This document shows, piece after piece, positions 1,379-23,257 of a stretch of DNA of 64,000 nt. This DNA comes from a bacterium (GTDB lineage: Bacteria; SAR324; NAC60-12). The notes under the pieces were generated by a model that did no database searches, was not told the DNA's origin, and saw nothing but the letters and a program-made list of their open reading frames with translations. The stretch covers positions 4,194,201-4,258,200 of the forward strand of contig OZ242383.1 of assembly GCA_965209155.1 (NCBI GenBank), read 5' to 3'. The position numbers and the translations under genes are program-made. Position 1 is the first letter of the stretch; every line of letters begins with the position of its first letter.

Positions 1379-1430
1379 TCGTGTTCCTTCTGTCTGATAG
1401 GTGTTCGAGATTTTAGTTTAACATCGATAA

Positions 1431-1743: not shown

Positions 1744-1815
1744 GCATATCGATGAAATTTATAAATGATTCTTATTATACATTAACGCTCGCGGTAGTTT
1801 AATATGCCGAGGAGA

Positions 1816-2754
1816 TCAAGTCGGTGCGAGCGCTTCCAGGGTGTGTTGAATGTCGGGCGGGAGCGGTCCGGCCTGGGCGGCCACGACGCTCTCCTCAATC
1901 TCATCGGGTGTGGATGCGCCTACCAGGATGGTCGCAATCTCCCGATTAGCCATCAAGAAGCGCACACTCATCGCCGCAATCGAAAGACCCGTGGCCCGGG
2001 CCAACTCGAGGAGGCGCGCATCTTGGAAGAGTGCTCCGTTGAAGACACCTTTGCCCGGAACGCAAAAAATGCCGCCAATCACGTAAGCTATTCCCTGTTC
2101 ACGAATGACCGGGAGCATCACACGCGGAGAAGTACGGTCCCTCAACGAATACTCATTGGCAGACAGACACATGTCGAGTTTGACCCGCTGCAACACATGA
2201 GCCAGGGGCTCCGAGCGGTTGGTACTGAGCCCCAGGTAGCGGCAAAACCCCTGGGCCTTTGCCTCATGCAGGGCTTGCATCACCGGCGCATTCTCGTAGT
2301 CGAACGACTCCTCGATCTCCAGCTGCTCCCCTTCTTTCGCCTCTGGCTTCCAGAATCGTCTCTGCTCCATATCGTGGCCCAGGAGCACGTCGACCCGGTC
2401 ACGACGCAGGACACGGAGGTTGTCTCGTACATGCGCGAGACAATCTTCTACCGTATGATTGGAGGCCCGCCAGGCATTGATCTTCGTGGCCAGTAGATGC
2501 GGCTTGCTCGTCCCCTTGAGCCCCTCACCCACAATTCGCTGCGACTCACCCTGGCTGATCCATTTCCCATCAGAACCCCCGATGCCGTACCCAGGAGAGG
2601 TATCAAAATAGCTGATCCCCAGATCCAGCGCATGTTTGACGGTGGCCAGCCCATGCTGATAGCTGTGCTTATGGAGCGCGGCGCCACCCAGCCCGATGAG
2701 GCTGACCGTCTCCCCTGTACGCCCGAAGGGGCGTTGTTCCAGTGTCCCTGTCAT
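1816..2754 (-). CDS. Aldo/keto reductase family oxidoreductase
   Basis: ORF 1816..3042 trimmed to the internal ATG at 2754 (AGGA SD upstream; avoids overlap with the upstream gene); AKR-like N-terminus MTGTLEQRPFGRTGETVSLIGLGG. Confidence 0.7.
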   Translation of the reverse strand: MTGTLEQRPFGRTGETVSLIGLGGAALHKHSYQHGLATVKHALDLGISYFDTSPGYGIGGSDGKWISQGESQRIVGEGLKGTSKPHLLATKINAWRASNHTVEDCLAHVRDNLRVLRRDRVDVLLGHDMEQRRFWKPEAKEGEQLEIEESFDYENAPVMQALHEAKAQGFCRYLGLSTNRSEPLAHVLQRVKLDMCLSANEYSLRDRTSPRVMLPVIREQGIAYVIGGIFCVPGKGVFNGALFQDARLLELARATGLSIAAMSVRFLMANREIATILVGASTPDEIEESVVAAQAGPLPPDIQHTLEALAPT

Positions 2755-2764
2755 AGAAAGTCCT

Positions 2765-3220
2765 CTAATGGGTTTCGTCCAGTCTCTCGTACATCTGATA
2801 GACGCTGGAGGGGAAGACGACGATCTGGTTCCCGTCCGGGTCCCTGAACCAGCGAGCTGGATTAGTCGGGTGCGCCGAATGGACTTCGATGCCTTTACTC
2901 TCGAGATAGGCAATCGCTTCGTCCATGTCGTCAACTTCAAGCGCGAGAAGCCGAAAGCCGGTCTGCTCCAGGGCAGGTTCCTTGTAATCGGGATTGGCCG
3001 GTGCATCCGGGTCGATCGAAAACAGCTCGACGATCGAGCCATCTTCCCCGGCCTTCGGGGCGTTGAGTGAAAGGTTGGCCACCTCTTTCAACCGCTCCAT
3101 GCCTTTCACCGTCCACCGCTCCCGGACTTCAAAGCCGAGGATTCCGCAGTAGAAATCGAGGAATCTTTCGGAATCGGCCGTTGCTAATCCGATGTGATCC
3201 AATCGTTTGAACTTGAACAT
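2765..3220 (-). CDS. VOC (glyoxalase/bleomycin resistance/dioxygenase) family protein
   Basis: 151-aa ORF with typical VOC N-terminus (RLDHIGLATADSERFLDFY) and matching size. Confidence 0.6.
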   Translation of the reverse strand: MFKFKRLDHIGLATADSERFLDFYCGILGFEVRERWTVKGMERLKEVANLSLNAPKAGEDGSIVELFSIDPDAPANPDYKEPALEQTGFRLLALEVDDMDEAIAYLESKGIEVHSAHPTNPARWFRDPDGNQIVVFPSSVYQMYERLDETH

Positions 3221-3355
3221 TGCTCACCTCTTAAATATGATACTTTACATGACTTTCGGCTCAATAAATATTCGCGAAATTGAAATAAAACCCTCAGCCA
3301 AAAGCGATTTCTTGAAATCTATCAAAAAAGAAAAAGAAAAACCAGCAGAAATTCT

Positions 3356-4291
3356 TTAATATTTGAAAGGATTGATCAGCCGGGCGAGGAGGCCTCGTTT
3401 GCGTTTCCTGGCGCCATAACTACCTTGACCGCCCCGCATCCGGGGATCGAGCAGATCCCTGAGGGCGTCGCCGAACATGTTGAGGGAGTAAACGACAATC
3501 GTCAGACAAAGCCCCGGCCAGAGCGCTAACCAAGGCGCCGCCTCCATGTATTTGCGCCCTTCCCGACTGAGCATCCCTCCCCAGCTGGGAAAGTCGACGG
3601 GCAGACCGAATCCGAGGAAGCTCAGCGACGCTTCAGACATAATCACCCCCCCGATGTTGATGGAGAAGATGATGATGAGGGGCGCCATAATATTGGGAAG
3701 CACATGGTGGACCAGGATTTGGGCTGTGGGGGTGCCCACGGCTTTGGCTGCCAGAAAATAGTCATTCTCTTTGATGTCAATCACGGCGCCTCTGACGACT
3801 CTTGAGCTGACGATGCCGCCGGCAATCCCCAGGACGACGATGATCTGGAAGACACCCCGTCCCACGATGGACATGATCGTCAACAACAGCAGCAGTCCCG
3901 GAAAAGCCATCCAGGCATCGACAAAGCGCTGCACCACCAGGTCCCATTTCCCTCCCAGAAATCCGGAAATGCCGCCGATCAGAACAGCGACCACAAGATT
4001 AAGCGTGGTCGCTGCCAGACCGACCGTTAACGAAAGACGAGCCCCGTGGATCAGGCGGCTCAATAAGTCTCGCCCCACGTAGTCGGTCCCCAGCAGATAC
4101 CGGGCTGATGAGCCCTGCATCCTGTCTACCAGGTGTATTTCCATATAGCGATAAGGAGCCAGAGCATCGGCGAAGATCGCCACCAGAATCAAGATCAATA
4201 TGATCATCCCGCAGGCAGTCCCCAAGGGCTTCTCCCTGACCAGCCTGATAAAGAATGCAGCCAGCCGGACCCGTCGCTTGGGTTCACTCAT
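3356..4291 (-). CDS. ABC transporter permease (DppC/OppC-like)
   Basis: 311 aa, multiple hydrophobic helices, permease-type conserved loop region; 8-nt overlap with upstream permease gene. Confidence 0.75.
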   Translation of the reverse strand: MSEPKRRVRLAAFFIRLVREKPLGTACGMIILILILVAIFADALAPYRYMEIHLVDRMQGSSARYLLGTDYVGRDLLSRLIHGARLSLTVGLAATTLNLVVAVLIGGISGFLGGKWDLVVQRFVDAWMAFPGLLLLLTIMSIVGRGVFQIIVVLGIAGGIVSSRVVRGAVIDIKENDYFLAAKAVGTPTAQILVHHVLPNIMAPLIIIFSINIGGVIMSEASLSFLGFGLPVDFPSWGGMLSREGRKYMEAAPWLALWPGLCLTIVVYSLNMFGDALRDLLDPRMRGGQGSYGARKRKRGLLARLINPFKY

Positions 4292-5240
4292 ACCGCACCC
4301 TGGGGTCCAAATAGGGATAAATCAAGTCGATCAGGAGATTGAACCCCACCACTCCGGTGGCGAAAAACAGGTTCACTCCGGAGACCACCGGGTAGTCTCT
4401 GACTTCGAGGGCATCCAGCAAGAGGCGACCGATCCCCGGCAGGTTAAAGATGTTCTCCATGATCACGGAGCCACCTACCAGGATCGGCAACTGCAGGCCG
4501 ACCAGGGTGACGACCGGGATGAGGGCATTTTTGATGGTGTGCCGGATAATCACGATCCGCTCCCGGAGTCCCTTGGACCAGGCGGTGCGGATATAGTCCT
4601 GCCTTAAGACCTCCAGCATCATGGTGCGCGTCATCCGCATGGTGGCAGCCGCCGAGGCCGTCCCCAGAATCAGGCTGGGAATGAGGAACATGCCGAGATT
4701 CCCCAGCGGGTCTTCGGTGAACGAAACCAGCTCCATCGAGGGCGACCAACCCCACCAGATGGCCGGGTAGATCATGACCATGAGGGCGAGCCAGAAGTTA
4801 GGAGTTGCCAGGCCGATGATGGCGATGGAGCGCCCCAGGTAGTCCGCGGCCGTATCCTGGCGGATTGCCGAGTAGATGCCGACGGGCAGCGCGATCACGA
4901 GCCCAATGAGGATGGCCAGGACGCCCAGCTCCAGGGTGACGGGCAAACGATCGAAGAGCCGCTCCTCGATCCGCCAACTCCCCACCAGGGATTCACCCAG
5001 GGTGCCGCGCAGGAGGATGCCGCCGATCCAGCGTCCATACTGCACGTAGACAGGCACGTCTAATCCCAGCATATGCTCCAGCACTTCACGGTCAATCTTG
5101 CCGGCTTGTCCTTCAGCCCTTAGCACCATTACGTCTAGTACATCGCCGGGGATGAAGCGGACCGAGAGAAAGACCAGGATGCTCAGGATGAACAGGGTGG
5201 GGAGGATCAGCAATAACCGCCTGATGATATAGGCATTCAT
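4284..5240 (-). CDS. ABC transporter permease (DppB/OppB-like)
   Basis: ORF 4284..5321 trimmed to ATG at 5240 (N-terminus MNAYIIRRLLLILPTLF typical of DppB; GAGG SD upstream). Confidence 0.75.
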   Translation of the reverse strand: MNAYIIRRLLLILPTLFILSILVFLSVRFIPGDVLDVMVLRAEGQAGKIDREVLEHMLGLDVPVYVQYGRWIGGILLRGTLGESLVGSWRIEERLFDRLPVTLELGVLAILIGLVIALPVGIYSAIRQDTAADYLGRSIAIIGLATPNFWLALMVMIYPAIWWGWSPSMELVSFTEDPLGNLGMFLIPSLILGTASAAATMRMTRTMMLEVLRQDYIRTAWSKGLRERIVIIRHTIKNALIPVVTLVGLQLPILVGGSVIMENIFNLPGIGRLLLDALEVRDYPVVSGVNLFFATGVVGFNLLIDLIYPYLDPRVRYE

Positions 5241-5341
5241 GGGACGGACCTCATCATTTTTGAAATTGGTGTGGAAACGCGGGGTATCCTGGAGTGGAGT
5301 GGGCAGTACTGCCCGCTCCACAAGTGCTTCCAGTCGGCCTA

Positions 5342-7177
5342 TTACTGGGTTCTGTCCTTCAGCTCCTGGTCAATCCAAAGGCGGGCGAGAACTTCACGTT
5401 CGCCGAACTCTTCCAGTCTCATTTCACCGCTAAAACCTTTGACCCACGGCTGGTTCGCTATAAAAATTGGAGACATAGGACCCCATATCTGATTGTGCTG
5501 CTTTAGAATGAGCATATCCCACTCTTTGTATGCCCTCAGCTGCTCCTCATGGGTGGTAGCGGCGTAAAAGGCGTCATAGGCGGCGGTCAGCTCGGGGGTC
5601 TCGACTCCCCCCACGTTGTCGCGCCATATCTGCAGCCTCTGGCGATAATTAGCTACCCAAACTACAGGGTCACTATACATGCCCCCGTCGCCATCGCTTA
5701 TGTCCCACTGAATTAGGTCTTCTTGAGGGACATCCTCGGTACGCTCGCCCACACCCCTGCGATCGAACGCCCAACCTTGCGTGTCATATATCTCAATCTT
5801 TACCTCAACGCCAATCGCCTCCCAGTAGCCGACAGCTATTTCTCGATAGCCCAAATCATATATGTCGCGGTGGTCGAGGTCGACCTTGAATCGAACACCG
5901 TCCGCGCCCCGCGGATATCCAGCTTCATCGAGCAGCTTTTCGGCACCTTCCGGGTCATAAGCATAGTATTGCTTGAGATCTTCGGGAAAGTCTTCAAATG
6001 TGTTGACATATGGCTTGCTGGCAATCCCCCCCATAGGTTCCCACCTTGCAAGCCCGCCGTAGTAGGTATCGTTAATCGTCTCGAGGTCCAGTGCCATCTG
6101 CATTGCGTGGCGCACCCTGATGTCGTCAAAGGGTGGCTTTTTAATGTTCAGACTAAAGGTGGAGTCGGACCGCAGGAAATTGCTGCTCACTTGGATATCG
6201 GGGTTGGTACGCTGGAGGCTCCTTACCACGTCGAGGTTCCTTATATGAGTGCCCTGGCTATTGAATATGTCAACCTTGCCCGTGCGTAGTGCCGAGATAC
6301 GTGTTGCTTCTTCTTCCATGTGCAGGGCCCTCATCTGGTCAATATAGGGGAGGCGGTTCTCCGGGTACTTTTCGTCGTAGCGCCAGTAGTCAGGATTCTT
6401 TTCCCAGGTGATAGAGACGCCCTCGACATAGTCAGTCAGTATAAGGGGCCCGGTGCCGACCACGTTCTTCCAATCCTCATAGTTGCCGTATTTCTCGATT
6501 ACTTCGGGGGGTAATATCCACTGCATAGCATCGATGAGGATAGCCCTTAGCGCAATGAGGGATGGCTCCGTCATCTTCATAACAACCCTATATTTGTCGG
6601 TGGCCTCGATCGATTCCCACGGCAGGTCGATCGTTTTGGCAGGGATCTGGGGACGTTCGGTAAAGTCGCCCAGAGCGTTATGACGCTGCCAGCTATATAC
6701 GACATCATCGGCTGTGAGTTCCCGCCCGTTTACTAAGCGGCTGGCCTCACTGTCTGGATCAAGGGCGTAGTGTACTCCCGAGCGGATGTGGAAGATGTAA
6801 GTCAGTGGGTCAGGCATTTCCCAACTTTCCGCCAGGCTCCCTGTTATGGCAAAATCAGGGACGTAGGAGTCTCTAAAGTCATATACCTCCCTATCTACTC
6901 CCCAGTCCCCCCAGGCGAGACGCTCATTAACCTGGGCGATTTGGTAGCCCGCATTGACCCAGCTTTTTAGCGGGTCAGTAGTCTCCCCTACAAATACGTA
7001 GGGATAGGTCAATGTCCCGCCGTATTCTGGTGCGGTCACGACCTTACCCGTGCTCGGGTCGGTCACATATTTCTGGGCGGCAGCCGGGCTGACCCAAAAA
7101 GCGGCCACCATCAGGGTGAGGGTTATCATGAATAATGATTTGAATGATCGGATTGTACTGGTTTTTATAGTTTTCAT
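5342..7177 (-). CDS. ABC transporter substrate-binding protein, family 5 (peptide/nickel type)
   Basis: 611 aa with N-terminal signal peptide (MKTIKTSTIRSFKSLFMITLTLMVAAFWVSPAAA) and SBP family 5 length/composition; heads the SBP-permease-permease operon. Confidence 0.75.
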   Translation of the reverse strand: MKTIKTSTIRSFKSLFMITLTLMVAAFWVSPAAAQKYVTDPSTGKVVTAPEYGGTLTYPYVFVGETTDPLKSWVNAGYQIAQVNERLAWGDWGVDREVYDFRDSYVPDFAITGSLAESWEMPDPLTYIFHIRSGVHYALDPDSEASRLVNGRELTADDVVYSWQRHNALGDFTERPQIPAKTIDLPWESIEATDKYRVVMKMTEPSLIALRAILIDAMQWILPPEVIEKYGNYEDWKNVVGTGPLILTDYVEGVSITWEKNPDYWRYDEKYPENRLPYIDQMRALHMEEEATRISALRTGKVDIFNSQGTHIRNLDVVRSLQRTNPDIQVSSNFLRSDSTFSLNIKKPPFDDIRVRHAMQMALDLETINDTYYGGLARWEPMGGIASKPYVNTFEDFPEDLKQYYAYDPEGAEKLLDEAGYPRGADGVRFKVDLDHRDIYDLGYREIAVGYWEAIGVEVKIEIYDTQGWAFDRRGVGERTEDVPQEDLIQWDISDGDGGMYSDPVVWVANYRQRLQIWRDNVGGVETPELTAAYDAFYAATTHEEQLRAYKEWDMLILKQHNQIWGPMSPIFIANQPWVKGFSGEMRLEEFGEREVLARLWIDQELKDRTQ

Positions 7178-7205
7178 ATTACCTTTTCTTTCTATTTGTT
7201 TTTGT

Positions 7206-7417
7206 GTAACTATTCAGGTCTCTGAAAAACCCGTTCAGTTAAATATCATTAAAAAGATTCCCGGAGAGGAACGATCGTTTTCAAATCCTCCCACGATATT
7301 GTTCCATTGATCGGGAACCCTCTCTTTCACTAAAACAACTCAGTGAAGGCATGAGTTTAGCACTACTACTACTTGCGCAATGTCAACCCCATATTAAAAA
7401 AAAATGCAGGATTCGTA
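7206..7417. repeat. Left copy of ~212-bp imperfect inverted repeat bounding the 7.2-14.3 kb accessory block
   Basis: Reverse complement of 14068-14282 aligns over ~212 bp at roughly 88-90% identity (begins GTAACTATTCAGGTCTCTGAAAAACCCGTTCAGTTAAATATCATTAAAAAGATTCCCGGAGAGG); outer end is ~29 nt upstream of the SBP start codon. Confidence 0.8.
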
Positions 7418-7660
7418 AAAAAAATGAAAAATCTATCAGTCAGGGAGATCCACGTTCTAAGCGCTCTTGCTTCCATGGCTCTCGTTCTTTTTCAAAGAGT
7501 GGACTGGCTTCTTGAAGAGCCTCGAGGTGGGGAATCGTGGTGAGAAAAGTTGATTTTCTCTGATGTCTGCGACTAATGACCTGGAAAAAGAGGCTGCTTC
7601 CTTGTTGATCCAGGACTTTGTATTTCCCGAGAGACGGAATCATCCGCCTGGCGAATCCTT

Positions 7661-8920
7661 CTAGACATCTTCATCCTTCTCAGTTTCCTGCTCCGATTCA
7701 GGAACTTCTTCATAGCTGACTCTGAATTCGGTTCCCTCTGTTTCGGGGTGTGAATTGGGGTACAAACGCAACAGGTCCCATTCATTTATCGACGCTCGGA
7801 CCTTGTATCTCATCCTGTTTCGATATCCCGCCCCACCTACCATGCTCTTTAATGGTGGGGCTTCCCATCCATAGGCAACGCTGTAGATTTCCCGAAGTTT
7901 TTCGACGGTCGCTTTCACGTCTTCTGCGGTCGGGGGTTCTAGTGCAATAGTCTCCTGCTCAAGGCTCCGCATACCCACTTCAGCTCTGTCCGCAGCGTCA
8001 ATATTTCCACGGGAACGCAAACGGGAACCTGCCGAGTCGAGGTCCCGCTTGCCAGTTAAAATGGCTGTAGCGAAGTCGTCAGTTACCGTGCCAGCAACAA
8101 CCAGTCCTGGACATGCTTTAGCAGAAACCTCTCCCAACCAGAAGGCCAGCTCTGCATAGGAACGAGCTCTTTGAAGTGGTCCATAAGAAGCGACTAATTC
8201 GACTTCGTCTAACAAAACAACCCAACCATTGTAGCCTGCCGCCTTGATCAACTCTGTTGCGAACCGTAGCCGTAGTGGAGGTAATTCTCTCGCTTTCGGC
8301 GCTTTGAAGGGAAAATTCTGTAACTGACCTATTGCTTTGAGGCCATCTTTTACCTTAGCCATCGCAATCCGCTCTCCCGACCAGAACGCTCTGACTTCAT
8401 TAATCAGTTCAAGATCGTTTGTCCTTTCATGGAGCATCAAGGTTGCCGGGAAAACAGGGTGCAGTTGTCCACTTCGATTGGCCCACTGAAAAAAATGCGC
8501 ATAAGCATCTGTTTCCTGTTCAAGACTGAGTCCGATTTCTTCCATAAGCTGCCCGGTTCGGTCTGGTATCCGGCCGTTGTCTATCGCGGATGTGAATACC
8601 TTAGCCTGGTCATAGAGCGGCGTCTCTTTGCTGATAGCTACTCTACTACACACAAAACCCCGCTTCAACGCCAGGTGTTCCAGATAGGAAAGCAGGTGAG
8701 ACTTGCCTGTGCCAAAATCTCCGGAAACCAATATCCCCAAGGAACGGGAAGGAGGATTATCCGGATCCGTACACTTGGCCAAGAGTTCAGTGAACTGACT
8801 TACTACTTGAGACTGACCACATCCCAATCGTTTTACCGATTCCTCATTGGGCACGCCACTCCGCAGGGCTTCCAATGCCTGCCTGCAAGAAAAAGCACTT
8901 TTATCTATATCGGTACCCAT
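7661..8920 (-). CDS. P-loop NTPase of unknown function (third gene of three-gene operon)
   Basis: 419 aa; Walker A GDFGTGKSHLL and Walker B-like VVLLDEVE; acidic C-terminal tail; 16 nt downstream of the preceding ORF. Confidence 0.7.
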   Translation of the reverse strand: MGTDIDKSAFSCRQALEALRSGVPNEESVKRLGCGQSQVVSQFTELLAKCTDPDNPPSRSLGILVSGDFGTGKSHLLSYLEHLALKRGFVCSRVAISKETPLYDQAKVFTSAIDNGRIPDRTGQLMEEIGLSLEQETDAYAHFFQWANRSGQLHPVFPATLMLHERTNDLELINEVRAFWSGERIAMAKVKDGLKAIGQLQNFPFKAPKARELPPLRLRFATELIKAAGYNGWVVLLDEVELVASYGPLQRARSYAELAFWLGEVSAKACPGLVVAGTVTDDFATAILTGKRDLDSAGSRLRSRGNIDAADRAEVGMRSLEQETIALEPPTAEDVKATVEKLREIYSVAYGWEAPPLKSMVGGAGYRNRMRYKVRASINEWDLLRLYPNSHPETEGTEFRVSYEEVPESEQETEKDEDV

Positions 8921-8936
8921 ACGGATTTGTCCCTTC

Positions 8937-9887
8937 TTAAAAGAGTTGCACCAAAGGAGCTATAGGATTCACCAGATTTTTATCCCGAACATCATCCATA
9001 ACTCTTGTCATAAGGGCAGGATAAATACCAAACCCCCGGGAACGAGCATCCTGCTCAAGAAATGCGCCATCCGTCACGATCACAAGTAAAGTACTAACCA
9101 ATTGCTCAGTTCTATCGATTAATTGCCTCAAAAGTTCGTAGTGATCCGTCGTCATGCTTTTAGTGTAGTATCTGAGCCCATCTACCGGATTACGGGCAAG
9201 CGTCACACGGGAATTGTCGAGCAGAATCACGGTTCCTGCATGTCCCGTATACTGGAAATAGTAAAGTGCCGATTCAATGAAATACCTCGCTGTTTTGCGG
9301 TTGATGCTGGTGTAGATCGAAAATGGCCTGACCGCGCCAAGTTTGGCCTCTCCTGTTAGCCAATCAATCAGCGCTTGACCTTCGTAGGATTGATTTCCAC
9401 GGTTGTTCTCGTATCGGCAAAGATGAGTCATAGCAACCCTGAAATCTTTAGTCATACGATATTTTTTGGTAACTTTATTTTCTATTTGAGGTCTCAGCTC
9501 CTGCAGTACGGATTCCAACTCGAGATCATTGACTTCTCCCATAGCCTTATAAATGTTATCGGTTTGATGCGAATCAATGGAATCAACCCGATAGCCAATT
9601 TCCTTGGCCATGCGTAAGAGCAAGCGACGGGCCAATTTCCGCCAGTCAACCTGCTTGGCCATCTCGAAAAAGATGTCTTGGGGCATATGGATTCTGATAT
9701 CTGACGCATCCAGCTTGACAACGACATAATCCTGTTCCTTGCCTCGATTCTCCACTGTTTCATATAAGGTCGGTTTCAAATTTTCCGGGGTCACTGCAAA
9801 TTTTATGGACGCGCCGCCCTGCGGGATGAAAGACGATAAGTATTCGGAATCGATACGTCGCAGCCAATCATGAAGGGATAGGTTCAT
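8937..9887 (-). CDS. Hypothetical protein (second gene of three-gene operon)
   Basis: 316-aa ORF with GGAGG SD ~10 nt upstream; start codon 2 nt from the stop of the upstream ORF; no motif assignable by eye. Confidence 0.6.
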   Translation of the reverse strand: MNLSLHDWLRRIDSEYLSSFIPQGGASIKFAVTPENLKPTLYETVENRGKEQDYVVVKLDASDIRIHMPQDIFFEMAKQVDWRKLARRLLLRMAKEIGYRVDSIDSHQTDNIYKAMGEVNDLELESVLQELRPQIENKVTKKYRMTKDFRVAMTHLCRYENNRGNQSYEGQALIDWLTGEAKLGAVRPFSIYTSINRKTARYFIESALYYFQYTGHAGTVILLDNSRVTLARNPVDGLRYYTKSMTTDHYELLRQLIDRTEQLVSTLLVIVTDGAFLEQDARSRGFGIYPALMTRVMDDVRDKNLVNPIAPLVQLF

Positions 9888-9889
9888 TA

Positions 9890-10681
9890 TTATTTGCCTC
9901 CAATGAATTGGATTCCGTAATATGACACCACTTGCCCGTCGGAACCTACGATGGGAAAACTGCCTCGCGCGCTCCTTGCCAATGTAGAAGAGGGAAAAGC
10001 TACGCGTGCGCCAGACTTTGTACTGGACGGACCATTGATCTCCAAGAAATAAAGGTCCTTTGCAAAATCCAGCTTTTTATAATCATTGCTGGCCCCGGGA
10101 AGAGAGGTGAATGCCTTATAGATTTCCTCTAGAGGTACCACAGGTTCTTTGATTGAAGAACCGACAGAGGAGGGTTTAGCGCAGAGTTTGTAATTAAAGT
10201 ACAAAGCCTCCAAGAAGCGGTCTGAACGAAATCGGGGTGGTTTTTTCTGGTTATTGGTCAGGATGTCAGCAAGGTAAGACGGTCTCAACGTCGATACTTT
10301 TTTCCGATCAATTCTCACTACCTGACTCTCAGGTAAGATTTGAACAATAGACGGGTGAGAAATCAATGCGCCATCTCTTTCATAGAGGTTCAATCCCTTT
10401 CTTTCCGCTGTGTCACATAGCTCGGCAGCATAGTGTTCCTTGAGGTATTCTATCTCTTTTCCATCCTCAAAAGGCCATGTTTCTACCGCGTTTTCCACCT
10501 CCTGCCTTAGAGAACATAGAGCGCTGTTTAACTTTGAAGCAGCCTTTTTTAGTGCGCTGATATCCCCTTTCTTTGCTGCATTCCGTAAAACTCCGGCCAA
10601 CTTTGCAAGTTCTAATGCAGATTTCATTGTTGAATTTGCAGCTTTTTCCGTATCACTGAAGGCCCGTTCAAAGCTCGTCAT
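9890..10681 (-). CDS. Hypothetical protein (first gene of three-gene operon)
   Basis: 263-aa ORF with AAGGGG SD upstream, helical-looking N-terminal half; no recognisable family. Confidence 0.6.
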   Translation of the reverse strand: MTSFERAFSDTEKAANSTMKSALELAKLAGVLRNAAKKGDISALKKAASKLNSALCSLRQEVENAVETWPFEDGKEIEYLKEHYAAELCDTAERKGLNLYERDGALISHPSIVQILPESQVVRIDRKKVSTLRPSYLADILTNNQKKPPRFRSDRFLEALYFNYKLCAKPSSVGSSIKEPVVPLEEIYKAFTSLPGASNDYKKLDFAKDLYFLEINGPSSTKSGARVAFPSSTLARSARGSFPIVGSDGQVVSYYGIQFIGGK

Positions 10682-11604
10682 TATCTACCCCTTTGCTTCC
10701 GTTCATTTTCCCACAACCCAGCCTTGTCATGGTTTGTTGAGTTATAACCTTGATGTCATCTCGACCGCATGGAGAGATCCCAAGATTCCTCACGTTCGTT
10801 CGAAATGACACATTTTTAAATGGGATATAACCTAACGAACCATTACATCTTAGGGACTAAAATAGTGTTTTTTATAACCGTTTTTTGAGAAAATAGGCAA
10901 GCAAAAAAATCAGAAAAAGTTTGACAGTGATTTTTGAATATTTTTTTAACTGTTCATTGATTCAAATTAGCAGTGTTGAATCTTACGCAATCTTTGCTCA
11001 GATTTAAGAACCTGTTTAAAAATTACGTACTGCGTTTTAACATGAGTCGAATCATAGCGATATAGACAATGACTTCAGCAGTGTGAGCATATCTTTCATA
11101 ATCGGTATTTTGTCGATGATACTATCCAAACCAAGAAATGGTTCTTTCCACAATCCATCACAATATGTCGTTTCCGTCCCTTCACCTTTTTTCCTCCTTA
11201 AAACCCCCGGAACCTCGCTGTTTTTCTGCATTTTGATTTTCTCACTCATCTGTCTCCTTTCTCCTTTTCATCAAATTTCCTTGCTCCTATGTCCCTCCAC
11301 AGCTGTTCAAAATTGTCCTGCAATCATTTTATAAGTCTCCACCCGATCTTTCGCATTGATTCTTTCTCGGGATCTGCGTACCTTTTTCATACGATCTCCC
11401 TTCGTTGGGTTAAAGTTTTGCGTGGTCCATGAAACCACAACATAACGAATGTGAGTTCATTTTTCAGTTTTCAACTAATTTTTGGACATTTCCTACCTTT
11501 AGTCCTTCCAGAATATTTTCTTTTGTCAGTTATTTTAAGTCAATAGCTGTTTGGCAATAAAATTGCATGTCTTTTTAATGTCCATTTTTTTAAAAAGGAG
11601 GTAG

Positions 11605-11883
11605 ATGTATCAAAGCAATTTAAGCGATCAGCAATGGTCTGAGATTGAACATTTTTTTAGACGTTCCGATCCCCGAGGTGCCAAAAGTATTCATAGCAAA
11701 CATACCATCGTCAATGCGATTTTATATGTGTTGGAAACGGGTTGTCAGTGGAGACTGCTTCCCCACGATTTTCCTCCCTGGCAAACCGTTTACGATCATT
11801 ATCGCCGCTGGAATCAAAGAGGGATTTGGCAAGAGGTTTTGGATTTCCTCAATGCCCGCACTCGCGTGAAAGAGGGTTCTTAG
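11605..11883 (+). mobile_element. IS5-family (IS4/5 DUF4096-type) transposase N-terminal fragment, IS remnant
   Basis: 92 aa with the characteristic N-terminal region (NAILYVLETGCQWRLLPHDFPPWQTVYDHYRRWNQRGIWQEVL) but no DDE catalytic domain follows. Confidence 0.7.
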
Positions 11884-11935
11884 AGTCCTTCCAATGTTTT
11901 CTTTTTTGTCAGTCTTTTGACCTTATAGATGCCTT

Positions 11936-12367
11936 ATGTCCTCAGAAACTTCTCTGATTGAAAAGCTCCAACGCATTGAGCGACTTTATGAAGGAGCCAT
12001 CACAGAAGGGGAACGCCTTGCCGCTGAAGAAGCTCTGCAACGGATCGGGGAAAGATTGCGCAAGATTCAACAGAAGGATCCTGTGGTTGAATACAAATTC
12101 ACCTTTCCCGACTTCTGGAGGCGGCGTTTGTTTGTTGCTCTGCTGAGACGTTACGGGTTTCGTCCTTATCGTTATCGAGGGCAACGTCACACGACAGTGA
12201 TGACTCGAATATCGAAATCATTTGTGGATCAAACTCTCTGGCCGGTCTTTTTAGACTTGTCTGAAGCGTTGGTTTCCCACCTGGATGAGATCACCACCCG
12301 CATCATCCAACAAGCGATTTATTCCGATAGTTCTGAGGCAGAAGAAAGAGACATGCTGCCCGGTTAA
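11936..12367 (+). CDS. Hypothetical protein
   Basis: 143-aa ORF between IS fragment and methyltransferase fragment; charged, helical composition; no family recognised. Confidence 0.35.
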   Translation: MSSETSLIEKLQRIERLYEGAITEGERLAAEEALQRIGERLRKIQQKDPVVEYKFTFPDFWRRRLFVALLRRYGFRPYRYRGQRHTTVMTRISKSFVDQTLWPVFLDLSEALVSHLDEITTRIIQQAIYSDSSEAEERDMLPG

Positions 12368-12390
12368 CCCCTTGAAGTTTTTATTGCCGA

Positions 12391-12924
12391 TTGTATGCTT
12401 TCATTAGGCGTAACTGCAGAGTCCCGGACTGTTGGGGACTGAAGGATCGTGACCTGATGGGATTGCCTTGGCGAGTAGCATTTGCATTACAAGACGACGG
12501 ATGGTTGCTGCGCTCAAAAATCACCTGGCTGAAGAAAGCTCCTATGCCCGAAAGCGTCAAGAACCGACCGTCAAACGCCACAGAGGAAATCTTTCTGTTC
12601 TCAAAAAGTGCAAAATACTACTACAACAATCAGGCAGTGCGAGAAGAAACCGGCGCCAATCTCCGGAATTACTGGCTGTTGGGGACGGATGCTGGTGACA
12701 AGCTGCATCCCGCCGTTTTTCCAAAAGAATTGGCACGGCGCTGCATAATCTTGGGTAGCCGTCCCGGAGATGTGATTCTTGACCCGTTTTCAGGGTCGGG
12801 AACTACTGGCATAGCAGCGATCGAGTCAAATCGTCGCGTCGTCCTTATTGAATTGAACGAAGAATATGCGACACAATCCGAAACCCGGATAAATAAGGGC
12901 GTACAGCAAACCTTAGCTGTTTAG
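12391..12924 (+). pseudogene. N-truncated DNA methyltransferase (beta-class N6A/N4C type), C-terminal portion only
   Basis: Contains the region preceding motif I (LHPAVFPKELARRCI) and motif I itself (DPFSGSGTT) plus the upstream ITWLKK segment, but the DPPY-type catalytic motif that lies N-terminal in this class is absent. Confidence 0.6.
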
Positions 12925-12941
12925 CTCCGATAAATTGCGCC

Positions 12942-13238
12942 ATGAGTACACTTTCAGAATTACGGCGAAGTTATCACTCCAAAATTGGCTCGCAAATAGT
13001 CCGATTCTCCGAGAGAAATCGCTTGCTTTATCCAAACTTTGCCGATGGCAGCAGTCAATCCAGCGTTTTCATTGCAAATGGAATAATAGATTGTGTATAT
13101 CACTTCGCTTTGGATGAGTTGCGCCAAGTCTGTGAAGCCATTCCCAAGGTGAAAGATCAATCAGAAATGCTGGCAGTCATGGTCGAAGGTAGTAGACTTC
13201 GTGACATAAGTGATTTGCCTTTCGATATTGTTGTTTAG
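12942..13238 (+). CDS. Hypothetical protein
   Basis: 98-aa ORF only; weak support. Confidence 0.25.
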   Translation: MSTLSELRRSYHSKIGSQIVRFSERNRLLYPNFADGSSQSSVFIANGIIDCVYHFALDELRQVCEAIPKVKDQSEMLAVMVEGSRLRDISDLPFDIVV

Positions 13239-14067
13239 AGGTCAATCGTTGCATTCATTGGATTGTTGAAAAATCCCGTGCAATGGAATCCGTCAAATCA
13301 CCACACCGTTGTATGGAGAGGAGTTTAAATCATGAGTAGCTCGATCCAACAATCCCTGCCCTTTGAAGAAGCAGTACACCTTGAAGGTCCTGGTCGACTC
13401 GGTCAGGCGAAGATCGAGTACGCCCCCGTCCAAAACATTCTGACGCGCGCAAAATGAAGCTTTTAGTGTCCTTCAAATGCACTTGCCGGATCTCGGTGAA
13501 GGAAAGGACGGCTTTGCTCCCCCTTTTGAAACCGAATGAAGGAAAATCCACGATGATTTTCAAAAAAAATTGCATGCTTGTGCTCTCAGGTCTCCACATC
13601 GTGGTCCACAAGCGTTCGATTGAAAGGCAAAGCAATGACTAAAAAGCCGAATCACTATCGCAGCGGATGGTTTATTTTCCGAGTCGGTAACATACGCCTC
13701 GGTATGTACCATCATGGTCTGGGCGATTGATAAAATTAAAGACAAGCGGGTGATACTCTCTCTTTTGCGGCATTGAATAACCCAGGAAATTCTCGCGGCT
13801 GTTTTGAGGTTTTATGAATAATGAGTCTTCCACAAGGTTTAAACCTCAAAAAACGCTATTGGGGCTGACACTTTTGGGCGAGAGGATATTTTTGCGCAAC
13901 GGCAGGTCAAGTTATTGATGAAATGATTAAAAGTTATTTGGAGCATCATTTTGAATCGAATCCTGATGATGATTTTCAGACCGAAGCCTAAACGGGTCTG
14001 AAATGACCCGTATCCGTACTTTCAGTACTTGAGTTTAAACCCTCCATCTTCGGACGGTGTTTGTTTA

Positions 14068-14282
14068 TTTTTTTTACGAATCCTGCATTTTTTCATTTGG
14101 AGGTTGACATTTTGCAAGATATATTGCCAAAATCATGCCTTTACTAAGTTGTTTTAGTGAAAGAAAAGGTTCCCGATCGATTGAGCAATATCGTGGAAGG
14201 ACTTGAAAACGATCGGTCCTCTCCGGAAATCTTTTTTAATGATATTTAACTGAACGGGTTTTTCAGAGACCTGAATAGTTAC
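14068..14282. repeat. Right copy of ~212-bp imperfect inverted repeat bounding the accessory block
   Basis: Reverse-complement match to 7206-7417; outer end ~73 nt upstream of the lipoprotein start codon at 14355. Confidence 0.8.
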
Positions 14283-14354
14283 GTTTTTACTTACTGAAAT
14301 ATAATTCATTTTAGCGTAACTTTTGTTAAAATACCTTTCCCTGGAGAAATTATT

Positions 14355-15341
14355 ATGACGGATACGCCACATGCAACTCCTCAAGATCATAATCAGGATA
14401 TGCTTCCTGCAAAGTTCGTTTTGAATAAATACCGGATCATTTTCGTAGCATTAACGCTTGTCGCGGTCGGCCTCGCCGCATGCGGCGGTGGAAAATCAGG
14501 ATCGGATCCCCTTAGTAGCCTTGAAAGCATCAGAGAACTGACTGGCATGACGGCACCGGTAGAGAAGCCCGCGGCGCAAAAAGCACGAGCACCAGGTATT
14601 GCCTCGCGATCCGACTCTCTGATCATCTCTACGACGTACGTGGAAACGAGCGACGATGAACTTCCCACTTTTAGCTTCGGGGCGCAGTGCGCCGGTACTC
14701 GGTGCACGATATCGGAGCCCAGGATCGGATACGTCAGGACCGTTACCCTGTCTGAACTCGAGACCATAACCCTGTCTGAACTCGAGATCGTGGACGGCTC
14801 TCCTGAAGCAGTTGGAACCAAGCACGGCATCACCCTGATGTCGGTAACCGGCCGGCGCATGGACGATGAGTTCACTACGTTTGGAGCATGGATGGCGCAT
14901 GGCGGGTTTCAGGTTGAGACCGCGCGTGTGGTAATCCCGGATGATATCAGGATGAACCTCGTCTCCGGCCTCGCTTTGGGTGATCTCACGGGCAGCCGTC
15001 CAAGAGGGAGCGCAACGTGGATCGGTCTTATGGTTGGAACGCCTGCCACAGGGGATAACCTCGGAGACAGGCTGCAGGGAGATGCGGCCTTGAACTACGA
15101 CATGAGCGCCGGCGGTGGGCTCGACGTCGGTTTCAGCAGTATCAAGAACATCGACCGTGGCACGGCGCACACGACATCCACAGTGCTATTCGCAGACGTT
15201 CCAATCAGTTCGAGTGGGACGTTTGAAGCAGGCCATGCTGGCAACCGCATCCAGGGCGGTTTCTACGGTCCTGATCACATTGAGGCTGCTGGAATTTTCG
15301 AGCAGTCAAACATCGTCGGAGCCTTCGGAGCAAAACGATGA
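14355..15341 (+). CDS. Surface lipoprotein with TbpB-like C-terminal beta-barrel (handle) domain
   Basis: Lipobox (VAVGLAACGGG) after a signal peptide; C-terminus NRIQGGFYGPDHIEAAGIFEQSNIVGAFGAKR matches the terminal motif of transferrin-binding-protein-B-like lipoproteins. Confidence 0.55.
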   Translation: MTDTPHATPQDHNQDMLPAKFVLNKYRIIFVALTLVAVGLAACGGGKSGSDPLSSLESIRELTGMTAPVEKPAAQKARAPGIASRSDSLIISTTYVETSDDELPTFSFGAQCAGTRCTISEPRIGYVRTVTLSELETITLSELEIVDGSPEAVGTKHGITLMSVTGRRMDDEFTTFGAWMAHGGFQVETARVVIPDDIRMNLVSGLALGDLTGSRPRGSATWIGLMVGTPATGDNLGDRLQGDAALNYDMSAGGGLDVGFSSIKNIDRGTAHTTSTVLFADVPISSSGTFEAGHAGNRIQGGFYGPDHIEAAGIFEQSNIVGAFGAKR

Positions 15342-15498
15342 TGAAAGAATCATTCACTAACGAAAATGCAAAGAAAGGGCTCAATTCTCAGAAGAAATCG
15401 GCTTGTTGGCTGGATCGATCAAAGGGTGACCGGTTGAAGAATTTGATGGTTTTTATATTTTGTGTTTCTTGGTCTCCTCGATTTTGTTGTGGTTCGTT

Positions 15499-15885
15499 TC
15501 AGTCTTTGTTTTGTTTTTCAAGATAGCGCTGAATCTCTTCCAGAGAAATCCGTTTGAGGATCTCAACGGGCGAAAGTCCTTTCAGGCGATCATCGGCCGA
15601 AAAGCGTTTGAGGACTTCATCAGTCGAAAAGCGTTTGAGGACCTCATCGGTCGAAAGCACACCCAAATGATCACGCACATAATCTTTTTGAAAATCTTCC
15701 ATCGTATAGGCCATCTCTAATCCCTCCAATTGATAGTTCTCAAAGAGTTGATTTAATATCGTACTGATTTCCCGGGTATGCCCTCGGTATTGACGCGAGG
15801 CAAATTCCACTTCTCCGGGAATGCCACTGAATAAATGCCAAATCGCATTATGCTCCGCATGAGCGATCTCACTCAGTACAATCAT
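15499..15885 (-). CDS. Hypothetical protein with tandem TDEVLKRFS-type repeats, possibly a gene fragment
   Basis: 128-aa ORF; ~30-bp tandem coding repeats at about 15540-15690; reading frame stays open upstream of the first Met, suggesting truncation. Confidence 0.3.
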   Translation of the reverse strand: MIVLSEIAHAEHNAIWHLFSGIPGEVEFASRQYRGHTREISTILNQLFENYQLEGLEMAYTMEDFQKDYVRDHLGVLSTDEVLKRFSTDEVLKRFSADDRLKGLSPVEILKRISLEEIQRYLEKQNKD

Positions 15886-16140
15886 CCGAATGAGATCACT
15901 CCCCCGCTGAATCTCATATGAAAGCGTTCTGGCTAGAAAGTTTGGAAAAGTAGCGTTTTTTTCTTATTCAAATCGATTTTACTTTCCTTTTCGCTTGTTT
16001 CTGAAAATGGCTCGTCAACCACGCCTTTACTATCCTGGCGCGCTTTAGCATGTGAATCTTCGTGGCCATGGAGGGCAAACCTTTTTTTCTGTCCTTCCTA
16101 CTATCGACAATTTTATCACTTGCTCCCAGATGGTTCCCAA

Positions 16141-16640
16141 TGCTTTGATCACCGGATTCACGCCTTTTGCTTAATGAGCAATCGTGTTCCTCCCTACTCT
16201 CTTCCTCTTTGAAGACAGATCATTCATCAAATGGATCGAGTTTATCAACTACCGGAGAATGAATTAACCCGAGTTCGACATAAATCTTCAATAATAGGAG
16301 TATTCTGGCGTTTATGTCTTTCCGGGCGCAGACCCGAAATCCAGATTTCAGTCTGGCTGCATACCTCTGGATTCCTGGTCAAGCCAGGAATGACACGTTT
16401 TCTCTACAGTCACGAAAGTCGAGTGAAGCCCGCGCGATGATTAGCCTGTTGGCTGTCGATTGGAAGTCCGCCACTATTCGAGTAGTCGGAAAATTTTAAA
16501 TTGAGATGATTTGACGATCAGCTTTGCTATGCACCAGTTGCGACAACGATTGAAGGAATCCGAGGGTCTCCAAATTCAATTAGAGGAACTAAAACGTCAA
16601 ATACTTGCTTGAAGTTTCAAACTTTCAGGCCTGACTCCTT
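16141..16640 (+). repeat. Dispersed ~500-bp repeat, element X copy 1
   Basis: Near-identical to 18060-18556 and, over its 3-prime ~240 bp, to 21961-22200; contains an embedded REP-like hairpin unit. Confidence 0.75.
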
Positions 16641-16833
16641 TTTTTTCACTCCTATAAAGAATTTCATAAGGTGAAGTAGATGTCTGGCCTATGTAGTTCT
16701 GAAAACCGCCGTTATAGCCCATGTAAAAATTCCCGTCCAAATCGCTTGAGTAACCGGGGCGACTGTCTTTCTCAACTCGCTTTTGGTTGTCTACAAAATC
16801 GGACTGTATTTTTATTTCTCGTTTCTTCGCCAT
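16597..16833 (-). CDS. Small hypothetical protein
   Basis: 78-aa ORF with AAGGGAAAG SD, just downstream of the lipoprotein gene; last codons run into element X. Confidence 0.3.
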   Translation of the reverse strand: MAKKREIKIQSDFVDNQKRVEKDSRPGYSSDLDGNFYMGYNGGFQNYIGQTSTSPYEILYRSEKKGVRPESLKLQASI

Positions 16834-16868
16834 AACACTTTCCCTTTCAATCAGAAAATAAATCTAAA

Positions 16869-17591
16869 TCAATTCTCTTTCATAGCTTTCCAACGCTTAA
16901 AAACAAAATCCACCATAAATTTATGAATCTCATATCCTCCATAATAATCATCTCTTAATTTTTGTACCATCGCAACATTAGGAGTCACAAAATTAGAAAG
17001 GTATAACTCATCAAAACGATCCAAATTTATACGATCCACAACAACTTTAATGATAGTATGTTGTTGATTGGACCCTGATAATAACACTAATTGATCATAA
17101 CCATAAGAATCTCTTCTAATATCAAAGCTAATAAAATCCAAAGAGATTAATTCTTCTTCACGTACTAAACTGATAAGTTCCTTCCACTCTCGATCATAAT
17201 AATATGCCCCTAATCCACAACGCTTATTCACATTATCACTCCATCGAGCCACTATTATCACTCTTGAATCATCAGGATATTTTTTCTCTTCGTAAAACCT
17301 TGAATGATAACCCATTATAGGTTGACCAGAAACATCATATTCCTCAATCTGTATCACGCAACCTTCAGGAAAAACTCGCTCAATTTTTTCAAAAAAAGTT
17401 AACTCCATATCAGGTTCAATTTCTGCCTCGACCACCTCAGGTAATACAGGAACTACCACTGAATCTTTGACAGTAGGAATTTGCTGAATACCATCATCCA
17501 CTTGAACACCAGCAACCGGAGCAGTCTCTTGAACCGGCATCGCACAACCAAACAAAAAGACCACTACAAATAACAAATAAAAAATTCTCAT
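16869..17591 (-). CDS. Hypothetical lipoprotein
   Basis: 240 aa; signal peptide with lipobox (FLFGCAM); AT-rich codon usage typical of this island. Confidence 0.55.
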   Translation of the reverse strand: MRIFYLLFVVVFLFGCAMPVQETAPVAGVQVDDGIQQIPTVKDSVVVPVLPEVVEAEIEPDMELTFFEKIERVFPEGCVIQIEEYDVSGQPIMGYHSRFYEEKKYPDDSRVIIVARWSDNVNKRCGLGAYYYDREWKELISLVREEELISLDFISFDIRRDSYGYDQLVLLSGSNQQHTIIKVVVDRINLDRFDELYLSNFVTPNVAMVQKLRDDYYGGYEIHKFMVDFVFKRWKAMKEN

Positions 17592-17642
17592 AAAACTCCT
17601 GTTATCGTACCATTAATAAAAAGGGATTTGTAGGCCATGTGA

Positions 17643-17990
17643 TCAATCATCAATAAACTCCCAACAAGTTGTGTTCGTTACTGCTTCAAATACATCACAA
17701 GCAAGTATTCTTGATGAACCGCCTTTATCATCTTCAATACTTAAATGATACTCTTCTCCATTCTTACATTTAACTGCAATATATAATGCAGCAGTATTCC
17801 AATCAATCCTTCTTATAAAATATTTCGTTACTGCACAAGAGACCCCAGACGCTGGACTAGCGAGCATAGTTAGAAATCGAATTTATTCTTTTTCGCTATC
17901 TCCATAAATTTGATAAAACCAGCGATTTGCATGAATTTGAGAAAACGATAATAAAATTGAAATCAACAGATAACAAATAATCTTTTTCAT
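17643..17990 (-). pseudogene. Secreted-protein gene interrupted by an in-frame TAA stop
   Basis: A 35-codon ORF starting at ~17990 encodes a signal peptide (MKKIICYLLISILLSFSQIHA) and is in the same frame as ORF 17643..17867, separated by a single TAA. Confidence 0.4.
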
Positions 17991-18009
17991 AACACATTCT
18001 AAAGGAACT

Positions 18010-18556
18010 GAAACGTCCAATACCTACTTGAAGTTTCAAACTTTCAGGCCTGACTCCTTTTTCATTATCACCGGATTCACGCTTTTTACTTAATGAGCAA
18101 TCATGTTCCTCCCTGCTCTCTTCCTCTTTGAGGACGGATCATTCATCAAGAGGCTCGAGTTTATCAACTACCGGAGAATGAATTAACCCGAGTTCGACAT
18201 AAATCTTCAATAATAGGAGTATCCTGGCGTTTATGTCATTCCGGGCGAAGACCCGGAATCCAGGTTTCAGTCTGGCTGCATACCTCTGGATTCCTGGTCA
18301 AGCCTGGAATGACACGTTTTCTCTGCAGTCACGAAAGTCGAGTGAAGCCCGCGCGATGATTGACCTGTTGGCATTCGATTGGAAGTCCGCAACAATTCGG
18401 GAGGTCGGAAACGTTTTCAATCGAGATGATTAAACGATTAGGTTTGGAGTGCACCGCTTGAGACCACGATTGAAGGAATCCGAAAGTCTCCAAATTCAAT
18501 TAGAGGAACTGAAACATCAAATACTTGCTTGAAGTTCCAAACTTTCAAACCAGACC
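18010..18556 (+). repeat. Dispersed repeat, element X copy 2 (with tail of an additional copy at its 5-prime end)
   Basis: Aligns with 16141-16640 along nearly the full length; the tail motif CTTGAAGTTTCAAACTTTCAGGCCTGACTCC is present at both ends. Confidence 0.75.
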
Positions 18557-18713
18557 TTGGTACTCACCAATCCCCGCGATATCTGACCGGGTGGAACGAT
18601 ATTCCTTCATCCGGCATTATTTCCAATTTATTTAAATGTTCCTATTATTGAATCAGTCTTTTTATCATAGACCTCAATTGTAGTTGCCAAAATAAACATT
18701 CTGAAATTTTCAT

Positions 18714-19040
18714 CTAATTCACTTCACCTGATAAAATAATTATACAATCATTACTACTGAATAGTCCTGAACGGCAATTTTTATTAAAATAATCCATAAA
18801 ATTTTTTCGGCCAATTCGGCTTAATATATCGGCACTTGCTCGAAGTGTATATCCATCAGATTGTACATCAAAATAATCATTTACTGATAATTTATCAGCA
18901 AAATAACTTGTTGTTCCTGCAAATTTAATCTCGTATCCTATTGACGCAAAATCAAAGGTATAGTCCTTTAATGTGGTTCTAAAAGGTTCGGCTTGAATAA
19001 TATTTACAAAAATTAAACCGATTAAAATATTTAAAGACAA
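18714..19040 (-). CDS. Small secreted hypothetical protein
   Basis: 108 aa with N-terminal signal peptide (MSLNILIGLIFVNIIQA). Confidence 0.45.
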   Translation of the reverse strand: MSLNILIGLIFVNIIQAEPFRTTLKDYTFDFASIGYEIKFAGTTSYFADKLSVNDYFDVQSDGYTLRASADILSRIGRKNFMDYFNKNCRSGLFSSNDCIIILSGEVN

Positions 19041-19104
19041 ATAAACGTTTCATATTGTATTCTCCATATTGAAGGTATTTCAAAATCGATCCAAAATTAT
19101 CAAT

Positions 19105-19455
19105 TCAAACTGAGATTGATTCTTTTTTTTTCTTAGGTTCAATTATTGCCAGGACACCACCTATAAAAGCTAAAACCATAAAAATCGCTACTATCGTACC
19201 ACCTAAAATTGCACCTACAATCGCACAAAGACATGTTATAATTCCCGGGATTCGGCTGTTTGAAGTTAAAGTAATTGCTCCCATAACTATGGTAAGAAAA
19301 GAAAAGAGAACTCCACCCCAGCCGAGACCGATTACTGTATTCGCCCCTTCCGCTTGAAAGGCACCGCCTATTCCACCTATGAATAAAGTTGCACCGGCAG
19401 CAAATACACTGAAAATACCTGCAATTATTGCAATAATTCCTCCTGCTTTTCTCAT
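19105..19455 (-). CDS. Glycine-rich small integral membrane protein
   Basis: 116 aa, three to four hydrophobic segments rich in small-xxx-small glycine motifs, lysine-rich C-terminal tail. Confidence 0.5.
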   Translation of the reverse strand: MRKAGGIIAIIAGIFSVFAAGATLFIGGIGGAFQAEGANTVIGLGWGGVLFSFLTIVMGAITLTSNSRIPGIITCLCAIVGAILGGTIVAIFMVLAFIGGVLAIIEPKKKKESISV

Positions 19456-19525
19456 ATCATCTCCTTTCTGTTATTTTTGCGTCAATAGAATCCATTCGAT
19501 TCTGCCAGAAGTTCTACTTCACGAA

Positions 19526-19822: not shown

Positions 19823-19834
19823 TTTGACCTCTTT

Positions 19835-22200: not shown

Positions 22201-22213
22201 AAACTAAAGAGAT

Positions 22214-23250: not shown

Positions 23251-23257
23251 GAAATTG

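Follow-up and report, generated by a model that had tools for sequence, protein, structure and literature searches.

Two long inverted repeats in the 64-kb stretch of bacterial DNA analysed here (the window) raise the question of why the same non-coding sequence should lie upstream of two unrelated genes, facing away from each other across 6.6 kb. The left copy precedes a gene for a substrate-binding protein (SBP) of an ATP-binding cassette (ABC) importer, and the right copy a gene for a TbpB-like lipoprotein. An earlier note on this DNA offered three readings of the repeats: a duplicated promoter or leader, the substrates for inversion of the enclosed segment, or the scar of insertion of a foreign block. 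The first of these is the best supported. With a probability that we place at roughly 0.55, both arms derive, as paralogues, from one non-coding 5′ module of approximately 225 bp, duplicated in front of two unrelated genes and predicted to act as a promoter and leader. This reading is favoured because the copies have the same polarity with respect to their genes, lie near the start codons, share an invariant −10-like motif, fold preferentially on the sense strand and contain a conserved core.

Extent, identity and copy number of the repeat

When the left copy was compared by blastn with the reverse complement of the right, they were found to be 87.3% identical over 228 columns (E~1e-71). A MAFFT alignment of the two copies agrees with this result, and an inverted-repeat search recovered four colinear pairs of arms across the same intervals (Table 1). 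The inverted repeat of approximately 212 bp described previously is thereby confirmed, and extends approximately 14 nt further at its gene-distal end. Also borne out is the placement of each copy just upstream of an outward-facing gene for an exported binding protein; both copies read in the direction of their own gene. The gap between module and ATG is 28 nt at the SBP gene and 72 nt at the annotated ATG of the TbpB-like gene. BLASTP shows no relationship between the two proteins (E=0.24), and the upstream neighbours of the two copies are likewise non-homologous, namely a BrxD-like gene on the left and a Y1_Tnp transposase fragment with a radical-SAM remnant on the right.

Related sequences, designated by L numbers, were ENA metagenome contigs retrieved by protein-anchored look-ups. 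A profile built from four copies revealed, with nhmmer, no third copy in the 64-kb window, to which the count of two refers; the same profile, together with degenerate-motif scans, found no copies beyond the known ones in 89 related sequences (831 kb). Exact scans for two conserved cores gave no match in the GTDB representative genomes, JGI metagenomes or IMG/VR, and blastn gave none in plasmid and phage collections, the source species being absent from all of these collections. Concatenated six-frame peptides, used to look for the module through spurious open reading frames (ORFs) across the repeat, matched nothing among 5.8 billion proteins. The window as a whole is very repeat-rich, with approximately 50 repeat pairs in a self-blast, of which several exceed the pair of modules in length and similarity.

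The promoter-like part of the module

Read in the direction of the gene, the module consists of a T-run, the conserved box TTTTTACGAATCCTG, TTGACA, a spacer, the motif TGC-nAnAnT-CAT and approximately 150 nt that form three hairpins. In the right copy this distal T-run forms the tail of a hairpin that resembles a terminator and is part of the remnant upstream. A promoter scan flags the right copy as TTGACA-18-CAAAAT, with TG preceding the second hexamer. Six copies or part-copies were compared for conservation of these motifs. TGC-nAnAnT is present in all six, its TG and the A2 and T6 of its hexamer being invariant, and five of the six keep TTGACA. The distance between the two motifs in those five is 18, 21, 21, 23 and 28 nt, and a classical −35/−10 promoter is doubtful because this spacing is not conserved. 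The spacer is hypervariable and of low complexity, being made up of (AGT)4, (TA)n or (TG)4.

The spacer tract (7363–7374 and 14110–14124 in the window, and the equivalents in L004 and L088) carries a different microsatellite-like sequence in almost every copy. Slippage within it could alter the geometry of the promoter.

The predicted leader and its 45-nt core

The strand running in the gene direction is predicted to fold better than shuffled controls (z=−2.25 for the right copy and −3.54 for the left), compared with z=−1.0 for the antisense strand. The last of the three predicted hairpins, H3, falls within a near-invariant core at the proximal end of the module, which includes CTGAA-N7-TTCAG-N4-CTGAA. 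Only 2 of the 45 columns of this core are variable, versus 46 of 183 in the rest of the module (Fisher p=0.0017), and the probability of a perfect run of at least 50 nt, given the observed mismatches, is 0.008.

Such folding would also be expected if the leader were a new cis-regulatory RNA, a riboswitch or attenuator, with its similarity kept by function and not by recent duplication. Alternative pairings are available (GAGAGG or GGGAGGA with UCCUCUCC, and CTGAA/TTCAG/CTGAA in two ways), H2 has a U-tract at its end, and both an invariant core and strand-specific folding are seen. We nevertheless regard this explanation as improbable. No Rfam 15 family was matched in the whole window at the gathering score, and each copy gave only noise even at E<=10. 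Compensatory changes were seen in 0 of the 51 predicted pairs, in a set of five near-identical sequences with almost no power to reveal them, and the covariation term was unfavourable. The 87% identity spans unstructured parts and the low-complexity tract as well, which is the signature of common descent, and the module is missing upstream of close homologues of both genes.

Four further identities were considered and rejected. A 23-codon ORF in the module (MPLLSCFSE...) loses its ATG in L004. The best match to a Fur box, at 10–11 of 19 positions, is below that of shuffled sequence. The mismatches between the copies are ordinary transitions and not adenine-specific, unlike those of a template/variable-repeat pair of a diversity-generating retroelement. 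An integron attC site was dismissed on the grounds that no integrase was found, the copies are inverted, and GTTACGT and GTTACAC fit GTTRRRY at only 6 of 7 positions. The core also holds TGA-N9-TCA, a RirA-type pattern in which only six bases are specified.

The repeat and the enclosed segment in related contigs

The related contigs show that the pairing of copy and gene is preserved, in L001 for the SBP and in L004 and L088 for the TbpB-like protein, and this supports the duplicated module. L001 is 98% identical to the window over 1–11494 and has the left copy at the same position before the SBP gene (95–96% identity); beyond ~11497 it runs into unrelated genes (YbeY and others), and the TbpB locus and its copy are unlinked. 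L004 matches 13323–15537 and beyond, with the right copy at 91–92%. L088, from the same sample as L001, has the window's head-to-head layout, but is 400 nt longer at the 11497 junction; most of its left copy and the 5′ end of the SBP gene are deleted, as are the distal 55 nt of its right copy. L086 matches 11514–13910 and then the TbpB gene from 14302, the repeat being replaced by 1.2 kb of other DNA.

Judged from these contigs, the enclosed 6.6 kb is not one unit, but two separately inherited halves. The segment 7432–11497 is colinear with L001 and L088 and goes with the SBP copy; 11514–14060 goes with the TbpB copy. Three contigs share sequence up to ...GGACATTTCC at the junction (~11497 in the window, ~5623 in L001 and 5900–6304 in L088) and then have three different continuations. 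Situated where the BrxD-like operon has its upstream edge, this position has the look of a hot spot for recombination or insertion.

Because the halves have separate histories in L001, L086 and L088, the notion of a foreign block bounded by the repeats, proposed in the earlier note, is removed. Of the explanations considered, the least probable takes the repeats for a composite transposon's ends or for the scar left when foreign DNA inserted once. It would account for the accessory content of the block, which comprises a BrxD-like three-gene operon, IS5 and IS200 fragments (IS, insertion sequence) and truncated methylase and NgoMIV genes, the latter remnants of restriction-modification, and for a GC content below that of the left flank. 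However, no recombinase or intact transposase was found in the block, the IS5 and IS200 genes being represented by fragments only, and no duplicated target site was seen in the flanks. The copies are unlinked in L001, the low-GC accessory DNA runs on past the right copy to ~25 kb, and no relative was found in which 7205 is joined directly to 14283, as at an empty site.

The same comparisons bear on inversion of the 6.6 kb, which would switch read-through from the three-gene operon. The copies are inverted, their 50-nt perfect tract makes such recombination possible, and the operon (7661–10681) reads toward the left copy with no terminator detected between. All four haplotypes (window, L001, L004 and L088), a small sample, however, have one orientation, none of the genes within ~10 kb encodes an invertase or integrase, and no resolvase or integrase domain was detected in the ORFs scanned over 1–32 kb. 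The left and right copies are 87–88% identical, and pairs from the same locus are closer (left/L001, 95%; right/L004, 92%). The copies thus tend to group by locus, with no sign of frequent exchange between the two, and they are unlinked in L001. The fimS and Bacteroides invertons have short (10–30 bp) inverted repeats and a dedicated recombinase adjoining them, and occur in both orientations in populations. The present locus resembles them in its inverted repeats around a segment beside genes for surface or exported proteins, but none of those three features was seen here. Inversion is considered very unlikely.

Loci without the module, and a possible mobile-element origin

Several observations weigh against a duplicated promoter-leader, in addition to the unconserved spacing and the lack of compensatory changes described above. 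Four TbpB homologue loci (L086, L087, L005 and L089; 70–83% amino acid identity) are without the module, as are the SBP homologues in L002 (86%) and L003 (73%), in which the 5′ region of the SBP gene is GC-rich and unrelated, starting inside the signal peptide. The TbpB gene has a conserved proximal promoter-like region of its own: the last ~55 nt before its ATG, including TGTTAAAAT and GGAG, are common to five aligned loci (window, L004, L087, L086 and L005). The left copy outside the core differs by 4.6% from its L001 counterpart, versus ~1.5% in the flanks, which suggests weak constraint outside the core. By this distribution the module is an optional add-on to its genes.

The homology of L087, L086, L005 and L089 to the window starts at 14284, 14302 or ~14311, that is, at or just past the proximal boundary of the module. 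L005 and L089 keep its last 13–14 nt, ACCTGAATAGTTA[C], at the same position, which hints that the TbpB upstream region may be the place of origin of the module.

A sharp boundary is also what a mobile element would leave. The main rival to the duplicated module is that it is a non-autonomous element or a solo element end (e.g. the right end of an IS200/IS605-type element), with any promoter activity incidental; we consider this possible, but doubtful. L087 aligns with the window again from 14284, immediately beyond the boundary, and the most conserved part of the module is its terminus, an imperfect hairpin ending in TTAC. In both the window and L004 the right copy is preceded, at a distance of 70 nt, by the Y1_Tnp fragment, presence of the module varies among TbpB loci, and the genome contains many IS remnants. 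Set against these points, no such fragment is found at the left copy, which also lacks the 70 nt that separate fragment and repeat on the right. A repeat search (seed 6) found no terminal inverted repeats in either copy, and the flanks share no target sequence or duplicated bases. No further copy was found in the 831 kb of related sequence or in the GTDB representative, JGI, IMG/VR, plasmid and phage collections, and no full-length element in the related loci examined. The remnant of the module in L005 and L089 means, moreover, that the apparent terminus may be native to the TbpB upstream region.

IS200/IS605 ends, palindrome-associated transposable elements and omega-RNA scaffolds have no terminal inverted repeats, and are marked by a subterminal imperfect hairpin and a sharp boundary. 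The module shares these features, and has a Y1 transposase fragment beside one copy. It differs in that the left copy is without tnpA or tnpB, no target motif is shared, and no match was obtained to the IS605-related RNA motifs of Rfam.

A proposed duplicated promoter and leader

From these features we infer how a duplicated promoter-leader module would work. Transcription would start from the extended −10 promoter (TGC-nAnAnT) of each copy, ~175 nt before the ATG of the SBP gene and ~218 nt before that of the TbpB-like gene. The resulting transcript would begin with a long structured leader, comprising a 5′ hairpin, a long hairpin of A-tract and U-tract and, next to the gene, the 45-nt hairpin or palindrome. 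This core is the likely control site, bound by a protein or acting as RNA, and both exported binding proteins would thereby come under one common input. The inverted layout and the 6.6-kb 'block' are taken to be incidental, an IS-associated rearrangement having set the two loci head to head.

Putative mobile promoters (PMPs) have been defined operationally as sequences of at least 50 nt and at least 80% identity lying no further than ~150 nt from the start of coding sequences (CDSs) that share no homology, a class that spans IS ends, non-autonomous elements, recombinational duplication and horizontal transfer (Matus-Garcia, Nijveen & van Passel 2012; PMC3488235). The module resembles the surveyed PMPs in that similar non-coding DNA precedes non-homologous genes with non-homologous upstream neighbours, in its family size of two, the smallest in the survey, and in a conserved stretch that begins tens of nucleotides before the start codon and fades upstream, like the Treponema example (PMC3488235). 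It differs in its length, ~225 nt compared with the 50–100 nt scored in the survey (PMC3488235), and in its long structured leader and unusually conserved proximal core. Of positions −50 to −150, all (SBP) or 78 nt (TbpB) fall within the repeat, whose copies are 87% identical over 228 columns, and neither the downstream nor the upstream CDSs are homologous. The module is therefore a PMP by the operational definition, a class label that names no mechanism.

Correia elements of Neisseria, which are promoter-bearing miniature inverted-repeat transposable elements, are short AT-rich intergenic repeats that can add a promoter and an RNA hairpin to an adjoining gene, and their presence varies among strains. 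The module is likewise short, AT-rich, intergenic and variable in presence. In contrast, it is without terminal inverted repeats, no target-site duplication was seen in its flanks, and only two copies were seen in the window.

Table 1. Positions of the module copies, their parts and associated features in the window
Feature	Position	Strand or orientation	Remarks
Left module copy	7206..7431	(-)	~225 bp, reads toward SBP gene; position kept in close relative L001
Right module copy	14061..14282	(+)	Reads toward TbpB-like gene; kept in L004, partial in L088
Arm pair 1	7206-7255/14233-14282	Inverted	50 nt, 100%, gene-proximal end
Arm pair 2	7251-7365/14122-14236	Inverted	115 nt, 88%
Arm pair 3	7372-7402/14088-14118	Inverted	
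Arm pair 4	7399-7431/14061-14093	Inverted	94%
Extended −10-like motif TGCCAAAAT, right copy	14125..14133	(+)	TTGACA 18 nt upstream at 14104-14109
Extended −10-like motif TGCTAAACT, left copy	7354..7362	(-)	TTGACA at 7381-7386, 21 nt upstream; spacer has (AGT)4
Predicted hairpin H1	14140-14161	(+)	
Predicted hairpin H2	14162-14237	(+)	A-tract pairs with U-tract; GGGAGGA/UCCUCUCC inside
Predicted hairpin H3	14247-14281	(+)	Within 45-nt core
Near-invariant 45-nt proximal core AATGATATTTAACTGAACGGGTTTTTCAGAGACCTGAATAGTTAC, right copy	14238..14282	(+)	
Same 45-nt core, left copy	7206..7250	(-)	
Family-5 ABC substrate-binding protein (SBP_bac_5)	5342..7177	(-)	Pfam E=1.4e-56
Two permease genes after SBP gene	4284-5321 and 3356-4291		
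TbpB/HphA-fold single-lobe lipoprotein	14355..15341	(+)	Lipobox; weak, sub-threshold TbpB_B_D and slam_lipo matches
Proximal 5′ region of the TbpB gene itself	14283..14354	(+)	Conserved in L087, L086 and L005, all without module
Extended −10-like motif TGTTAAAAT in that region	14324-14332	(+)	GGAG ribosome-binding site also there
Breakpoint between halves	11494..11514		Adjoins IS5 (DUF4096) fragment
IS200-type Y1 transposase, C-terminal fragment	13866..13991	(+)	PF01797 E=1.7e-4, profile positions 96-120/121; 70 nt upstream of right copy only

Flanking genes

The substrate of the SBP was not resolved by NCBIfam. For the lipoprotein, the AlphaFold model (pLDDT 76) matched the TbpB C-lobe, HphA haemophores, LbpB and fHbp with a Foldseek probability of 1.0, so that, with the lipobox, the description 'TbpB-like lipoprotein' in the earlier note is a fair one. 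The closest named relatives of both proteins come from sponge-associated metagenome-assembled genomes (MAGs), and the source is an uncultured, probably sponge-associated bacterium.

The single-lobe TbpB/HphA-fold family was represented by 80 loci (L006–L085), nearly all from MAGs, many of them visibly sponge-associated. They are labelled as Alpha-, Gamma- and Deltaproteobacteria, Chloroflexota, Bryobacterales, Binatia and Poriferihabitaceae, and some genomes have several copies. This distribution suggests horizontal spread of a symbiosis-linked surface protein. A 24-nt tandem duplication in the gene of the window (14738–14785) adds eight residues (TLSELETI), and is present in none of 23 aligned homologues. 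Since L088 is ~98% identical to the window across 7454–12395 but 92% identical across the TbpB locus (14116–15918), the lipoprotein locus appears to be changing, by divergence or exchange, far more quickly than the DNA around it.

Upstream of the TbpB-like gene, a stem AGTTAC...GTAACT is kept while its loops differ by allele (L005 9936–9975; L089 9936–9975; window 14277–14321). Two changes in the stem of L089 yield G-U wobble pairs, which hints at a possible RNA hairpin in this 5′ region.

Other genes and repeats of the window

The three-gene operon in the left half of the enclosed segment (7661–10681, minus strand) encodes two P-loop proteins of the BrxC/BrxD family (419 and 316 aa) and a 263-aa protein without a family match. 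No complete PADLOC system was matched, and the operon is truncated in L088. In the right half, the N6_N4 methylase and NgoMIV-type endonuclease genes (12391–13238) are truncated remnants; both are full-length in L086 (5524–7280; 290 and 288 aa), as is the methylase in L088 (10132–11004).

A dispersed repeat of ~567 bp, 97–98% identical among copies, occurs at 47243–47809, 63080–63646 (inverted) and, in part, 1428–1743, as well as at 14875–15444 in L001. It holds a 115-aa gene of the 23S_rRNA_IVP family, and the copy at 1428–1743 is internally deleted relative to L001. A low-GC island at 15500–25600 (31–40% versus ~52%) contains small ORFs without known function, two DUF7424 paralogues and an Exo_endo_phos gene. 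Its repeat families, of ~230–490 bp, are at 16148–16635/18067–18555/21946–22192 and 21382–21674/22912–23200/25319–25593. The island is syntenic in L004, but only 84–92% identical. In addition, related tandem or dispersed repeat arrays were seen by self-blast at three intergenic sites, 26232–26650, 33895–34078 and 43831–44041 (72–83%).

Implications

For the scanning of genomes, the locus provides a practical lesson: where repeats abound and the genome is a mosaic, accessory genes enclosed by a pair of long inverted repeats do not necessarily form a mobile or invertible unit, a question that is soon resolved when close haplotypes are compared. A bolder and rather unlikely extension of the duplicated module is that it is a portable cassette, in which the invariant 45-nt hairpin or palindrome senses or binds a putative regulator or ligand and so joins the TbpB/HphA-type lipoprotein and the ABC-importer SBP in one nutrient-acquisition regulon. 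If so, a new cis-regulatory element would have been caught while being copied between genes. Should the module drive and control both genes, it would be a clear-cut example from nature of regulation rewired when a promoter-leader unit is copied, and would open up the regulation of a lipoprotein family that occurs in many sponge-associated MAGs of several phyla.

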